A stretch of DNA of 41,423 bases from a virus (lineage: Duplodnaviria; Heunggongvirae; Uroviricota; Caudoviricetes). Below are positions 34,784-41,423 of the stretch, piece by piece. Position 1 is the first letter of the stretch. The number at the start of each line of letters is the position of its first letter. The stretch is taken from IMG/VR virus record IMGVR_UViG_2728369188_000008, positions 1-41,423 of that record. One strand, written 5' to 3'. Below the pieces are notes generated by a model, which searched no databases, had not been told where the DNA came from, and saw nothing but the letters and a program-made list of their open reading frames with translations. Made by a program: the position numbers and the translations under genes.

Positions 34784-35233
34784 ATGCAAGTAACCGTGGA
34801 ATATAATCAGGATAGTTTTGACTATTTTTTCTCCCCGGTTTTTGTTGAGTTTCCTGATTTAAAACAAACACTTGTAGATGATTTTATCATCTACAAGTCT
34901 ACGGGAACGTTGCCCAGCTATTTTGGCAGAGACACCTCTTATCATCGGCCTCCTGATATTGAAGATGCAGGTCTTATGCACCTTCATTTAGCAATTGGTG
35001 AAAATAAATTTGAGCCAATAAAAAATGGCACAGATATCAGCACACCGCAAAAGTTGCAGTGGCATAAAACATCCAATACCGCTCTCGTTTATGCACAAAA
35101 TCTTTTTGATGAGAACAGGTATTCATTGATTGCTCTTTTTCATCCTGTAGCTCACATGTCTGCTAACAATCATAATAGAATGAGAGTGTTAGCAGGGTAT
35201 GCGAGAGACTTTAGAAACACTATGTTTGACTAA
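34784..35233 (+). CDS. YafO-like toxin-family protein (149 aa)
   Basis: Motifs DDFIIYK, LPSYFGRD, HLHLA, ALVYAQNLFDE, SANNHNRM and RDFR align with what I recall of E. coli YafO; GAGG RBS; intrinsic terminator follows. Confidence 0.55.
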   Translation: MQVTVEYNQDSFDYFFSPVFVEFPDLKQTLVDDFIIYKSTGTLPSYFGRDTSYHRPPDIEDAGLMHLHLAIGENKFEPIKNGTDISTPQKLQWHKTSNTALVYAQNLFDENRYSLIALFHPVAHMSANNHNRMRVLAGYARDFRNTMFD

Positions 35234-35758: not shown

Positions 35759-35946
35759 AAAACCGCAGATGTTGTTTTTGTGGGTGTAGTAAAGAAACGA
35801 CTGGCAGGGGCTTTGTTGTGTCAAAAAATACCGAAGAAGCAATTTGTGACTCATGCGTTACAGATATTGTTATTTTCATGCATGGCGAGAAGGGGTTAGA
35901 TGAAAAGCTAGAGAGTATTCCAGTTGAAGGCGCTGATAAAAGTTGA
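35755..35946 (+). CDS. Small Cys-rich (zinc-ribbon-like) protein, translationally coupled to arc
   Basis: 63 aa with CCFCGC...CDSC; GAGGGGG RBS; ATG overlaps arc stop (ATGA). Confidence 0.5.
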
Positions 35947-36008
35947 AGCCCCAACTGCGGGAACAGTCAGGGCTTCGGTATCAACAAATCGGATTAGGAA
36001 ATATTGAC

Positions 36009-36887
36009 ATGAAAAGTATAGCAAAGGCACAAAACGATTTCACCATCTTCAAATTCGGCGACAGTGAAATCCGCGTCATCAACAAATGCGGTGAGCCGTG
36101 GTTTGTAGCAAAAGATGTTTGTGATGCTTTAACCCTGACTAACTCACGCAAGGCGCTTACTGCACTTGATGACGATGAAAAGGGAGTAACTTTAAGTTAC
36201 ACCCTTGGTGGTGAGCAGAATCTAAGCATTGTTAGCGAATCAGGTATGTATACATTGGTTCTGCGCTGCCGCGATGCTGTCAATAAAGGTTCGGTCCCGC
36301 ACAAATTCCGCAAGTGGGTAACAGCAGAAGTTCTACCTTCAATTCGCAAACATGGCGAGTATGTGAAAGGCAAGAAAACCACTGTTGAGGAAAGAACGCC
36401 GCTACGCGATGCAGTAAACATGCTGGTAGGAAAGAAAGGACTTCGCTATGACGATGCATACAATATGGTTCATCAGCGTTTTGGTATTGACAGCATTGAT
36501 GAACTTTCAATTGAACAAATCCCGCTGGCCGTAGAGTACATCCACAGGGTAGTGCTTGAAGGCGAGTTTATCGGCAAACAAGAGAAGAAGACCAACGATC
36601 TTTCTGCAAAAGAAGCAAACAGTCTTGTATGGTTATGGGATTATGCCAACCGCTCACAGGCATTATTCCGCGAACTGTATCCGGCGCTAAAACAAATTCA
36701 ATCGAACTATTCCGGCAGATGCTACGACTACGGTCATGAATTCTCGTATGTTATCGGAATGGCGAGAGACGTTTTAATAAACCACACACGAGATGTTGAT
36801 ATTAATGAGCCAGACGGACCAACGAATCTTTCCGCATGGATGAGACTTAAGAATAAAGAATTACCTCCTTCAGTACATAACTACTGA
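36009..36887 (+). CDS. ant: Antirepressor Ant (Bro-N domain)
   Basis: N-terminal Bro-N motif [16 protein letters not shown]...; start at internal ATG with AGGAAA RBS (track ORF 35943-36887 begins at a TTG). Confidence 0.8.
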
Positions 36888-36905
36888 CAGATAACCAACG
36901 CAACG

Positions 36906-36930
36906 ACCCAGCTTCGGCTGGGTTTTTTTA
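36906..36930 (+). terminator. Intrinsic terminator after ant
   Basis: ACCCAGC-TTCG-GCTGGGT hairpin followed by TTTTTTTAT. Confidence 0.8.
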
Positions 36931-36987
36931 TGCCCAAAATTCACCGTAGCTACGCTGCGGCGATTCCTTGTATCTGGAGCAAATTAA

Positions 36988-39090
36988 ATGACAGACATTA
37001 CAGCCAATGTGATCGTATCGATGCCTTCGCAACTCTTCACTATGGCTCGTTCTTTTAAAGCCGTAGCCAATGGCAAAATTTATATAGGTAAAATTGACAC
37101 TGACCCTGTAAATCCTGAAAACCAGATTCAGGTTTATGTGGAGAACGAAGACGGCTCTCACGTTCCTGTATCGCAACCAATCATCATTAACGCTGCTGGA
37201 TATCCGGTATATAACGGACAGATTGCCAAGTTCGTTACTGTGCAGGGCCATTCTATGGCTGTTTATGATGCGTATGGTTCTCAGCAGTTCTATTTTCCAA
37301 ATATTTTAAAGTACGATCCTGACCAATTGAGGCAGGAATTAAGCAATCCTGCAGATGGCGTCGGCGATGCTTTGATCGCTGTAAAACAGCCTGTTGATGG
37401 CTCGATTGCTGTAACTCAGCATGATAAAAACGCTGAGAACATCAGTGCGATTGATTTTGGTGCTAAGGGTGATGGTGTCACTAACGATGTTGCGGCTTTG
37501 CAACTGATGGCTACCAAGGTGGGTTATATCCGCCTCACGAGAGGAAGTTACTTCCTTACCACCTCTACCATTGATGTTCCAGTCATCTTCGAAGATGGTG
37601 CGGCTTTAGTTTCGGCGCAGAGCAACACTGTCACCATCACTGGCGCTGTCACCTCGATTCGTCAGTGGATATTTAAAGGTGATGGCCTGTACTCGCTGAG
37701 TAATGACACTAACAGCGGTGAAAACTCCAGGGAGATTCACGCGTCATGGTTTGGCGTATTTCCAACCGGCACAACCGAAATAGACCAGTCAACCGCGCTT
37801 AATAAGGCACTGTCCTCTCTTGGTACATCGCGAGAGGGAGTCGTTCATTTTGATATTGGTCGCTATACGCTGGGAGCTGCCGTGCAGGTTCCCCGTGCGA
37901 TTGAGATCAGAGGGAAAGGAAGTCGCAGGACAATTTTTAACGTAACAGCCAACGGCTTCGACGTTTTCACTCCTCAGGCTAACGGGGTTAAGTTCACTGG
38001 AATTCAGTTTGAGCCATCACCAAACCTGTCGACAGGATTCCGAAGCGCTGGACACTGGATAAACCTGTCTCAGCAACTTTGCGAGGTAGATGATGTCTGG
38101 ATGGGAAGGGCATTCCAGAGCCTGAAAGTTACCGCAGGGCAGTGCAAGCTGCGACGTATATCAGCGACCTATTCAGAGAACGTGGGTTCTGGTTCTTATC
38201 TGATTTCAATTCAGGGATCAGATTGCTCGCTGGAAGGCGTGCACGTTGCCAGTTCAAACTTTGGTCCAACGAGGATAGTTGAGGTTGGTGGTGAAACAAC
38301 ATCAAACGTGTCAAATGTCCTGGTTGATAATGTCACCTTCAATAACCCATCCATTGGCATTTCAATCAACACCACCGTGAGGATCATATCAGGAATAATC
38401 ATTCGCGCTATTCGCTGCAAAGGTAATGCAACCTATCCTGCGATTCGTTGTGTTGAGCTGACAACATCAGGGGCCGGAACAGGCAATATTAATAATGTGG
38501 TGATTGATGGAGTGACGGCTAATGAATACGTTACTCACTGCCTGCTTATTTCCCAGGGGAATAGCGGGTCAATCACCAAGGTGTCCGCGAGCAACTTTAA
38601 GGTAAATGGATCCACAGGGGTTGGGATTAACTTTGTTCAAACGCTTGGCAGCCTTTCAACAATAGTCATCGGTGACACTGTGGATGTTTCGGCATATGCA
38701 ACTCCTTACCAGTACAGCGGAACAATGAGTAATGTTGTGGTGGCTGCGGAAGCTAACCCAATTACTAACACTGCTCTATGTTACGACTACACAATTAATG
38801 ATGACTCAGTTGTTTCCATTGATCTTCACAGACAAATGTTTACTGGATTCCTGATGGTAAGTGTGGGTGCCGAGGAGTATGCAATTCTCGTTATAAGAGC
38901 TGCGGCAAGCCAGAGAATATTGACTGTGCAGGTTTCAGGGAACGTCAATACAACAACAGGCGTATTAACTGGAACAACCGGTGCTGATGGAAAATTTACT
39001 ATTGGGATAGCGAACAGCGCCCTCTATTTTGAGAACAGGCTTGGCAACTCTCAGCGAGTAAGTGTTTCAACACTATTTGGCATTCGTTAA
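36988..39090 (+). CDS. Tailspike protein (P22 gp9-like head-binding N-terminus, divergent receptor-binding body)
   Basis: First ~115 aa ([13 protein letters not shown]...[27 protein letters not shown]...[13 protein letters not shown]...LKYDPDQ) match the P22 gp9 head-binding domain; remainder differs. Confidence 0.85.
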
Positions 39091-39093
39091 CAA

Positions 39094-39117
39094 GGCGACT
39101 AAGTCGTCTTTTTTATT
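39094..39117 (+). terminator. Intrinsic terminator after the tailspike gene
   Basis: GGCGAC-TAA-GTCGTC hairpin (one G-U pair) followed by TTTTTTATTT. Confidence 0.65.
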
Positions 39118-39128
39118 TGGAGATAGAA

Positions 39129-39470
39129 ATGCCTCAATTCTTTAACTCTTCTACGCCTGTCACGTCTTATGTAGCGTATCTGAGCGGAATCGTAGCACCA
39201 TCATTCCAGCTGTCGGTATCAGGACCTGGCACCCAACCGACTGGTCACTGCACCAACAGGCGGCGCGAGCGCCATCATGGGGTACAACGCCGCGATAACC
39301 ACCAACCTGATTACAGTGAACGAATCACCTAATGGTACGGGAGGTGTGCTGAAAGTAACAAACATCGGCCCCGGCAACGTGCACGGATGGATTCCCGCAG
39401 GAAAGTATGTGCGGATCAGGACAGTAGCAGCCAGCGGTACGCCGACCTTCACTTATGTGAGGGGGGGAAG
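39129..39470 (+). pseudogene. Possible decayed coding remnant with frame break and G7 homopolymer
   Basis: Two overlapping frames (track ORFs 39117-39332 and 39277-39648) each protein-like for a stretch (e.g. TGGVLKVTNIGPGNVHGWIPAGKYVRIRTVAASGTPTFTYV); run of seven G at 39461-39467. Confidence 0.3.
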
Positions 39471-39477
39471 AAGTGCT

Positions 39478-39573
39478 TCAATAATCGTTATCCACATCAT
39501 CAGCCGCCGACCTGAATATCAGCCAGGCGGCGATCACAAACACCAATGCAACCCCACCAATTGCCAACCACAT
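39478..39573 (-). CDS. Candidate 31-aa single-pass membrane peptide
   Basis: Minus-strand ORF MWLAIGGVALVFVIAAWLIFRSAADDVDNDY with one hydrophobic helix; weak RBS. Below ORF-track cutoff. Confidence 0.25.
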   Translation of the reverse strand: MWLAIGGVALVFVIAAWLIFRSAADDVDNDY

Positions 39574-39708
39574 AGACACCCCCGCTTCGACAATCTAAAT
39601 CTCCTTGCTTCTCATGGTCTTTTCAATTCGTGCATTCGATCTTCTTGATCAAATTCACTGATCGATATTACTGTATATGCATACAGTAATCATCAGGAGG
39701 GACAAGCG

Positions 39709-39948
39709 ATGCCCCGAGACTACGACATTCCATATGCTTTCACGCTAGCCATCACACCAAACGCCAGAGGTGTGCAGGTCGTCGCCACATCAGTATTCCG
39801 CCGTGAACTACACAAGCTTAATCACGACTGGACTCTGCAGCGCTGCAATGAGTGGATAATTAGCAGGCAGACGTTCTTCGCGGACATCACCGAAGGTGAT
39901 TCAGTTGATGGTACTTACGCGCTACGCAACATGGGGAGGGTTCTCTAA
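39709..39948 (+). CDS. Hypothetical protein (79 aa), possibly ImpC-like leader gene of a decayed mutagenesis operon
   Basis: Good RBS CAGGAGGGA; stop overlaps start of the umuD-like remnant (TAATG). Confidence 0.45.
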   Translation: MPRDYDIPYAFTLAITPNARGVQVVATSVFRRELHKLNHDWTLQRCNEWIISRQTFFADITEGDSVDGTYALRNMGRVL

Positions 39949-40267
39949 TGGGATTTCCTTCACCGGCAACTGATTATGTTGAAGAACGCATTAACCTCAA
40001 CCGCATATTCATACCCAATCCAGCGAACACCTTCATGATTGAGACATCGACCGGCTGCATTCTGGTTGACAGGGTGGCTAAGGTTTCGCCTGGCGATTTG
40101 GTTGCGTTCCAGATGGAGGCAATCCCATGCTTGGAAAATGGTACCCGAAGCACCTGATGACGGATGACGGTTTGATAGAGGGTGAGCAACTGGAAGAGGT
40201 AATAGTGCTGGGTGCGGTGACGGTGGAAGTGCTGACGCTGGATGAGAAGTGGAGGCCGACTATATAG
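39948..40267 (+). pseudogene. umuD/impA-like (peptidase S24) remnant, truncated and frameshifted
   Basis: Begins MGFPSPATDYVEERINLN, resembling UmuD around the Cys24-Gly25 cleavage site; the GDSM active-site Ser region is missing; C-terminal similarity (EEVIVLGAVTVEV) continues in another frame from about 40125. Confidence 0.55.
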
Positions 40268-40271
40268 GGGA

Positions 40272-41423
40272 TTACTCCCCATCAATCCAGTCCGCCCACC
40301 ATTGCATCATTTCTCTGCGCTTATCGAGATACTGAGCATGGTTGTAAATTCCACGCACAGATCCGCCGTTGGCATGTGCCAGTTGCACTTCAATAGCGTC
40401 AGCAGGCCATTCGTGCTCGTTCATAATCGTGCTGAATTCATGCCTGAATCCGTGACCGCTTTCCAGACCCTCATAGCCGATTTGTTTGATCACAAGTAGA
40501 ACCGCGTTCTCGCAGATTGGCTTCTTCTTATCGTTGCGCCCGGCAAAAACAAACTCTGATACTGGTTTGGTGATGGAGCTTAGCGTAGTGAGAAGTTCAA
40601 CCACCTGGTCTGACATCGGGACCACATGAATTTTGCGTCCCTTCATCACACTGGCGTCGATGGTGATAATCCTGTTTTCAAAATCGACGTTCTTCCATAG
40701 CATGGAACGAAGCTCTTTCGTTCTTAGGGCTGTGTAGCGTAAAACTTTGGTCGCAATGAGCGATACGATACTTCCTGAAAATGTTGCCAGTGCTTTGTTG
40801 AATGCAGGGATCTGGTCTGCAGGAAGAAACGGGAAGTTCTTCTTGCGGTATCCCTTCATGGCGTCAGCAAGGTCAGGTGCTGGGTTATATTTAGCCCTGC
40901 CGGTGACAATAGCGTAACGGAAAACCTCGCCGCATCTTCTGCGGGCTTTGTTGGCTCGCTCCATTGCACCGCGATCTTCGAATCTGCGGATTACTTCCAG
41001 CAGTTGCATCGGCTCAATATCCTGAATCTCAAGGCCGCCGATGATGGGTAAAATGTCGTCATCAAACATTTTGGCAAGTTCAGTTGCATAGCCTACTGAC
41101 CAGACTTGCTTCTTGTGCTCGTACCATTCCTTGTAAATCGCACTAAATGAATTGTTGTTAGACGAAGCCTTTTTCGCCTTTACCGGATCGATGCCAACCG
41201 AGATGTCTTTCCTAGCGGTCCATGCTTTATCCCTTGCTTCCTGCAAAGTCATAAGCGGATATTTTCCGACGGTCAGGATTTTCTCCTTACCGTCAATCTT
41301 GTAGCGAAGCTGCCATACCTTTTTCCCGGATACAGGGACATAAAGGTACAGGCCATTACCATCGAGAAGGCGGTATGGTTTTTCTTTCGGCTTTGCTGCT
41401 TCAATCTGCTTAACGGTGAGCAT
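40272..41423 (-). CDS. int: Tyrosine integrase (P4-type)
   Basis: 383 aa; N-terminus MLTVKQIEAAKPKEKPYRLLDGNGLYLYV typical of P4-family integrases; C-terminal catalytic region with R...HGFRH...Y context; start codon is the last 3 nt of the window. Confidence 0.9.
   Translation of the reverse strand: MLTVKQIEAAKPKEKPYRLLDGNGLYLYVPVSGKKVWQLRYKIDGKEKILTVGKYPLMTLQEARDKAWTARKDISVGIDPVKAKKASSNNNSFSAIYKEWYEHKKQVWSVGYATELAKMFDDDILPIIGGLEIQDIEPMQLLEVIRRFEDRGAMERANKARRRCGEVFRYAIVTGRAKYNPAPDLADAMKGYRKKNFPFLPADQIPAFNKALATFSGSIVSLIATKVLRYTALRTKELRSMLWKNVDFENRIITIDASVMKGRKIHVVPMSDQVVELLTTLSSITKPVSEFVFAGRNDKKKPICENAVLLVIKQIGYEGLESGHGFRHEFSTIMNEHEWPADAIEVQLAHANGGSVRGIYNHAQYLDKRREMMQWWADWIDGE

Follow-up and report, generated by a model that had tools for sequence, protein, structure and literature searches.

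The tailspike gene of the window, by which we mean the whole 41,423-nucleotide stretch of DNA analysed here, is probably the functional gp9 equivalent of a P22-like (Lederbergvirus-type, CUS-3-related) temperate Escherichia coli phage and consists of two separable modules, and its product is very probably a receptor-binding tailspike of anchor plus beta-helix design. An ORF check found the 700-aa reading frame uninterrupted from its ATG start on the + strand (window 36988-39090). The exact protein is already deposited as WP_061309341.1/KXL12037.1 under the name 'phage head-binding domain-containing protein', and is present in several mosaic E. coli prophages. The features of the gene and its surroundings are collected in Table 1.

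Table 1. Coordinates of the tailspike gene, the domains of its product and the neighbouring features in the window
Feature	Position	Strand	Basis or remark
YafO-toxin-family ORF, variable immI region	~34784-35233	+	PF13957, precomputed annotation of identical locus L034
sar RNA, antisense regulator of ant	35941-36007	-	Rfam RF00262, 71.6 bits versus gathering score 43
Terminator-like hairpin and T-run, after antirepressor gene ant, upstream of tailspike gene	36905-36924	+	Consensus scan
Ribosome-binding site GGAG	36976-36979	+	8 nt before ATG, read directly from sequence
Tailspike gene	36988-39090	+	Intact ORF, 700 aa
P22-type head-binding (particle-anchoring) domain, residues 1-113	36988-37326	+	Pfam PF09008, identity, foldseek
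Linker/neck with a 16-residue motif, residues 114-148; recombination junction zone	37327-37431	+	DNA/protein similarity ends
Beta-helix cap (12-residue motif, helix 168-178) and first short rungs, residues 149-245	37432-37722	+	PF12708, AF2, profile search
Main right-handed parallel beta-helix, residues 246-590	37723-38757	+	AF2, foldseek, conservation profile
C-terminal beta-sandwich, residues 591-700 and stop codon	38758-39090	+	AF2 strands 597-697, PHROG 14558 C-terminal match
Terminator-like hairpin and T-run, directly 3' of tailspike stop codon	39092-39110	+	Consensus scan
Non-coding relic, last ~80 codons of a different receptor-binding protein gene	39223-39465	+	Similarity to AVO22989.1
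69-aa ORF, UmuD/S24 peptidase N-terminus-like	39948-40157	+	Similarity

A preliminary description of this DNA had proposed that only the first ~115 residues resemble P22 gp9, and the limit was reproduced closely. PF09008 (Head_binding) matched residues 1-113 over all 113 model positions with E=6e-67 (223 bits versus a cut-off of 24), and these first 113 residues are 76% identical to P22 gp9 and 92% identical to Sf6 gp14. When the protein was searched against PDB sequences using phmmer, P22, Sf6 and other chains were recovered with E values of 1e-45 to 6e-78; the alignment to P22 gp9 was confined to residues 1-119 (E~1e-51) and this search detected no likeness to gp9 beyond residue ~119. Structural comparison using foldseek gave TMt values of 0.7-0.85 between the N-domain and the P22/Sf6 N-domain structures. 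Full-length similarity to P22 gp9 was absent by Pfam, by phmmer and in a DNA search of phage genomes; the architecture put forward earlier, a P22-type head-binding domain on a non-P22 body, was confirmed.

The short neck that follows has low pLDDT in the monomer model (residues 114-148), joins both modules and acts as a recombination zone. DNA similarity to CUS-3 stops at nucleotide 354 of the gene (window 37341) and that to HK620 at nucleotide 345, and across 50,697 phage records all DNA matches to the tailspike gene stop at gene nucleotides 315-443, with none of these records covering more than 21% of the gene at the DNA level. Relative to CUS-3, the window-specific segment runs from 37342 to 40279 and comprises the body and 1.2 kb downstream. 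The left junction is a zone (residues ~114-165) rather than a single point, because similarity to phage 611R6 extends at the DNA level up to 37430 and at the protein level up to residue ~163, with 66% identity over residues 114-163. The Sf6 gp14 alignment reaches residue ~196 (phmmer versus PDB sequences), and weaker similarity to some other tailspikes runs through the neck/cap motif, a 10-residue stretch followed by TQHDKN and DFGAKGDG.

For the remaining ~585 residues the preliminary description had suggested a different beta-rich domain, to be compared with the Sf6, HK620 and CUS-3 tailspikes. AF2 modelling bears this out: a beta-helix was predicted, and the body sequence is unlike all three. 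The full-length model had a pLDDT of 84, and a body-only model (residues 146-700) reached a pLDDT of 91.1 and a pTM of 0.82 with regular short strands across residues ~160-590. The C-terminal domain carries the conserved motif LTGTTGxDGK...YxENRLG. In the full-length Foldseek search the N-domain and the flexible hinge prevailed (TM ~0.2); the search was therefore repeated with the body-only model, which matched phage tailspikes/depolymerases and other beta-helix enzymes with a probability of 1.0, at TM values of 0.3-0.44 and identities of 9-13%. The neighbours include the spikes of Acinetobacter phages P1 and Fri1, of HK620 and of Sf6, as well as Depo32, AlgE epimerases and rhamnogalacturonase A, and the best structural matches are all phage tailspikes/depolymerases. 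Podovirus beta-helix tailspikes studied so far are nearly all depolymerases or deacetylases. On the model, the body belongs to the broad beta-helix depolymerase fold class; it would probably cleave a glycan.

The fold class is known, yet the body is without a close solved or characterised relative. Besides PF09008, the sole Pfam match on the whole tailspike is a marginal one to the pectate-lyase-like PF12708 (residues 153-233 only, 28.1 bits versus a cut-off of 27), a model that is matched in 13 of 20 family members with a best E value of 7.5e-14. NCBIfam has no model for the body, the search for a characterised body homologue returned none (database names are generic), and tblastn of the body against phages reached no more than 37% coverage, with 26% identity. 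A family profile searched against PDB sequences recovered only the generic cap motif (Sf6 and GH55 caps) and the Sf6 neck, and neither Pfam nor this profile search revealed an endosialidase or known lyase signature in the tailspike. Because the likeness to solved tailspikes is only at the level of the fold, catalytic residues cannot be transferred by homology. We also considered an internal duplication, as the consensus contains two cap-like motifs (DFGAKGDG... at 153-233 and HASWFGVFP...REG...GxGxRRT at 249-320), and rejected it since the local alignment of residues 149-246 with 247-346 was no better than that of shuffled sequences (z=0.1).

The body is part of a modest family that carries no name. 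A word-indexed protein search returned ~19 full-length body relatives with identities of 31-50%, a number that an exhaustive HMMER search (E<=1e-30) raised to 147 cluster representatives among 1.84 billion, ~100 of which span the whole body. The bodies of these proteins start anywhere from residue ~9 to ~886. Related loci are present in IMG/VR phage contigs and Sinorhizobium prophages, and the bodies are preceded by P22-type head-binding domains, T7 tail-fibre N-termini or several unrelated types of anchor. Four contigs of Sinorhizobium fredii, S. glycinis and S. medicae (L007-L010) carry body relatives with 36-38% identity over ~530 residues, which lie in alpha-proteobacterial prophage regions and have long unrelated N-terminal extensions of 246-280 aa; these show a very wide host span for the body module family.

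Three prophage contigs of a single isolate (IMG 2839365859) are particularly informative. L015, L016 and L017 (IMG/VR UViG_2839365859_000006, _000002 and _000004, respectively) have bodies that are 96-99% identical from residue ~114-134 onward on unrelated anchors, a head-binding domain in L015 and another type in L016 and L017. Megablast of L015 and L016 against phages gave att-site matches only, or none. The tailspike copy of L017 is frameshifted near residue 541. The occurrence of near-identical bodies on unrelated anchors within one genome shows that the body goes with the host and the anchor with the phage, the body being the exchangeable, host-tracking module.

Conservation within the family is uneven along the body. 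Identity to the query is 40-51% at residues 146-345 and 47-49% at residues 646-695, and falls to 19-35% at the central rungs (residues 346-545); conserved ends with variable central rungs are the pattern expected of a conserved scaffold with a diversifying glycan groove. Residues 245-366 contain an invariant or near-invariant charged cluster (E245, H251, R282, E283, D289, Y293, R303, R313, R314, E342 and E366) situated in the N-terminal third of the main beta-helix, and we infer that E342 and E366, about one rung apart, are the best candidates for an acid pair. The cluster could instead be structural or form an inter-subunit interface, since part of it lies in the structural cap region.

The genomic setting of the gene is that of a P22-like phage. 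Positions 17000-41423 of the window constitute a P22-like (Lederbergvirus-type) genome whose closest relative is CUS-3 (64% coverage, 93% identity), and locus L034 (GCA_001571725.1) matches the window with 100% identity along 11.4 kb, so that the window evidently comes from this assembly or from a prophage identical to it. The tailspike gene is preceded by P22-type gp4, gp10, needle, gp7, gp20 and gp16, then by a variable immI region (Arc-family repressors, sar RNA) and by ant; in L033 and L034 the upstream matches are P22_Tail-4, Phage_stabilise, Phage_tail_NK, P22_gp7, Inj_translocase, P22_gp16, Arc and P22_AR (ant). The sar RNA overlaps the start region of ant, like in the immI region of P22, and the position of the YafO-family ORF is occupied in other lysogens by SieA, ClpP-like or P63C genes. 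The hairpin between ant and the tailspike gene has an 8-bp stem with 5 GC pairs and is followed by TTTTTAT (consensus scan and sequence reading). Downstream of the tailspike are small ORFs and then a convergent integrase adjoining yfdC-mlaA-fadL-fadIJ, which is the argW locus. The adjacency of tailspike and int had raised the possibility of a circularly permuted genome, which was rejected because L032-L036 show the CUS-3-type argW layout, with attL, int and the tailspike converging on int.

We then compared the region 36372-40326 of the window with L001 (NZ_OZ501607.1) and L032-L036. The tailspike cassette occurs at two integration sites with different integrases: at argW, next to yfdC, and, in NRZ105822, between sbcB and dacD (window 36372-40326, 97% identity). 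The recurrent left mosaic boundary of the shared cassette falls at ~36554, within the part of ant that encodes the conserved C-terminal domain P22_AR_C, where the similarity to CUS-3 also begins. The identical 700-aa tailspike is found on at least 10 contigs with differing immI regions, and the 90% cluster to which it belongs has 41 variants and extends over more than 100 E. coli contigs. An identical protein across differing immI regions, together with a cassette at two integration sites, argues for a maintained, exchanged and functional unit. Among 5,426 complete E. coli genomes the body is carried by one, NZ_OZ501607.1.

Some 130 nt past the tailspike stop codon, an 81-residue stretch (39223-39465) with in-frame stop codons upstream is similar to residues 656-737 of AVO22989.1 (60% identity over an 83-column alignment, E=3e-27), a 742-aa protein of Erwinia phage Bue1 (Ackermannviridae) that carries Pfam Tail_spike_N. 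Among the complete E. coli genomes it is confined to the one that also carries the body, and we interpret it as what is left of the 3' end of a receptor-binding gene that was displaced. One lysogen, L032 (GCA_013360035.1), has a 612-bp direct duplication that covers the 3' end of the tailspike gene and sequence downstream of it (L032 12281-12892, equivalent to window 38648-39259); this creates an extra 121-aa ORF copying the spike C-terminus, and shows how such relics arise. At the position of the 69-aa S24-like ORF, NZ_OZ501607.1 has a longer annotated gene, a 106-aa 'S24/S26 family peptidase', so the ORF is probably a decaying moron.

A mechanism can be proposed from the established biology of P22, Sf6 and HK620 and from PMC10408124, applied to the two-module architecture and the P22-type virion genes found here. 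The tailspike would trimerise, and six trimers would dock via their N-domains on the gp4/gp10 tail hub of the same prophage. The beta-helix body would bind the host surface polysaccharide and probably cleave it, so that the virion would gradually reach the outer membrane, the site of action of the needle and ejection proteins. The preliminary description had further deduced a receptor and host range different from those of P22. This deduction is supported by four results: the prophage resides in E. coli rather than Salmonella, its body is of the beta-helix type found in depolymerase tailspikes, near-identical bodies occur on unrelated anchors, and work on Lederbergvirus receptor-binding proteins (RBPs) agrees that the body sets the receptor and host range (PMC10408124); the receptor itself is putative.

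We lean slightly towards an O-antigen as the substrate and glycoside hydrolysis as the chemistry. The only complete-genome lysogen, NZ_OZ501607.1, has a wzx-wzy segment 100% identical to that of E. coli S88 ('S88 variant O45'); its serogroup was called from the RefSeq annotation and this DNA identity to strain S88, and NCBIfam models gave no match to its Wzx/Wzy. S88-type O45 occurs in 37 of the 5,426 complete genomes, 36 of which are without this spike. An S88-type O45 receptor is thus a working hypothesis, a lead from n=1 genome, and the specific identification of the O-antigen as S88-type O45 is tentative, being less likely than not. It is tempting to speculate that an uncharacterised family of beta-helix depolymerases (~150 clusters, from E. 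coli to Sinorhizobium) has in this body its founding E. coli member and possesses its own conserved catalytic centre, formed by E245/H251/R282/E283/D289/R313/R314/E342/E366 near the N-terminal rungs, and that this particular member specifically recognises and cleaves S88-type O45 O-antigen; taken as a whole, this proposal is doubtful.

A spike of the same design could instead be directed, perhaps with lyase chemistry, at a capsule or exopolysaccharide (K antigen, colanic acid or similar). We consider this rather unlikely, and it stays live because CUS-3, the closest backbone, has a capsule-specific endosialidase spike at the same position. Several structural neighbours (Fri1 gp49, Depo32, Acinetobacter P1) are also capsule depolymerases, and a capsule-tropic P22-like E. 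coli phage has been reported (bioRxiv 10.64898/2026.05.19.726188). The best full-length PHROG match is likewise annotated 'tail spike protein with colanic acid degradation activity' (phrog_8280, E=9e-117); however, nearly all of this match comes from the head-binding domain and the body alone gives E=0.0015 (19 bits), so the label is carried by the shared anchor and was rejected as evidence of function. Moreover, neither Pfam nor the family profile search showed a signature of an endosialidase or known lyase, and O-antigens are the target of most characterised P22-like spikes (PMC10408124). Less probable still is a binding-only adhesin, a beta-helix that recognises its receptor, be it glycan or protein, without catalysis: PfbA and other non-enzymatic beta-helix adhesins are among the structural neighbours and no catalytic residues can be assigned by homology, but the family retains the invariant acidic residues E342/E366 on adjacent rungs and the studied podovirus tailspikes of this architecture are almost without exception enzymes of the two kinds named above (PMC10408124). 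That the prophage is cryptic and the gene in decay, with no working spike made from it any more, as the nearby relics and pseudogenes (the RBP 3' relic and the truncated S24-like ORF) and decay elsewhere (the frameshifted relative in L017, the partial duplication in L032) might suggest, is very improbable, given an intact ORF that is identical on at least 10 contigs despite otherwise different flanks, the number of variants and contigs in its cluster, the complete P22-type virion gene set upstream and the intact RBS and terminators.

The two-module build represents the ordinary tailspike modularity of these phages; it fits the established model and will not surprise a specialist. The preliminary description's word 'chimeric' is therefore apt for the build, but denotes the normal condition across the P22-like group rather than an anomaly. 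Since the swapping of anchors and receptor-binding domains (RBDs) has already been described, the novelty lies in an uncharacterised body type within a known modular design. Tailspike bodies decide which surface polysaccharide is recognised and hence which strains are infected, and any newly found body type might supply a serotype-specific depolymerase for use in typing, in phage engineering or against virulence; assignment of the substrate would add one entry to the E. coli RBD-to-glycan map. If the body does cleave S88-type O45, which belongs to a neonatal-meningitis/ExPEC lineage, it would serve, as it stands, as a reagent for typing or against virulence. The locus also illustrates in a compact way how modules move, with a conserved left joint (ant C-terminal domain, head-binding domain and neck), a downstream relic of the displaced gene and a cassette at two integration sites.

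Compared with known systems, the tailspike shares with P22 gp9 (Salmonella, endorhamnosidase) the head-binding domain, the gene position after the ejection proteins, immI and ant, and the overall plan of anchor, neck, beta-helix and C-terminal domain. In contrast, the bodies superpose only at the fold level (TM ~0.2 in the full-length search), the catalytic triad of gp9 is not alignable, and the host of P22 is Salmonella whereas that of this prophage is E. coli. Sf6 gp14 (Shigella, endorhamnosidase) has the closest solved N-domain, with similarity through the neck and cap to ~196, and its body is among the better structural matches (TM 0.35-0.40), yet the structural alignment gives only 10-12% identity, and the Sf6 body is shorter and differs in its C-terminal region. 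CUS-3 and HK620 share a head-binding segment that is 90-93% identical at the DNA level. In CUS-3 the similarity breaks at codon ~115-118 and resumes in int; its body is a K1 endosialidase, with neuO downstream, and that of HK620 gp9 (endo-N-acetylglucosaminidase) is an O18A1-specific beta-helix (TM ~0.3), both without sequence similarity to the body described here. The best body Foldseek E values (2e-8) were obtained with the podovirus beta-helix depolymerase spikes of Acinetobacter vB_ApiP_P1 (6e1r) and Fri1 gp49 (6c72), which differ in having TM values of 0.32-0.35, identities of 10-13%, and other anchors, hosts and substrates. Tailspike exchange has been described among P22-like phages, Ackermannviridae and T7-like phages (bioRxiv 10.64898/2026.05.19.726188). 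The RBPs of Lederbergvirus prophages combine an anchor conserved across the genus (in the HK620 RBP, the first ~124 aa) with a horizontally exchanged beta-helical RBD that correlates with the O serogroup of the lysogen, under the assumption that a prophage RBP matches its lysogen (Pas et al. 2023, PMC10408124). The RBD subtype found here and its accessions are absent from that paper and its supplements, and the principle of the anchor/RBD swap is the same. Altogether, sequence comparison places the protein among the P22-like tailspikes by its anchor and genomic setting, and outside the body families of P22 gp9, Sf6, HK620 and CUS-3.
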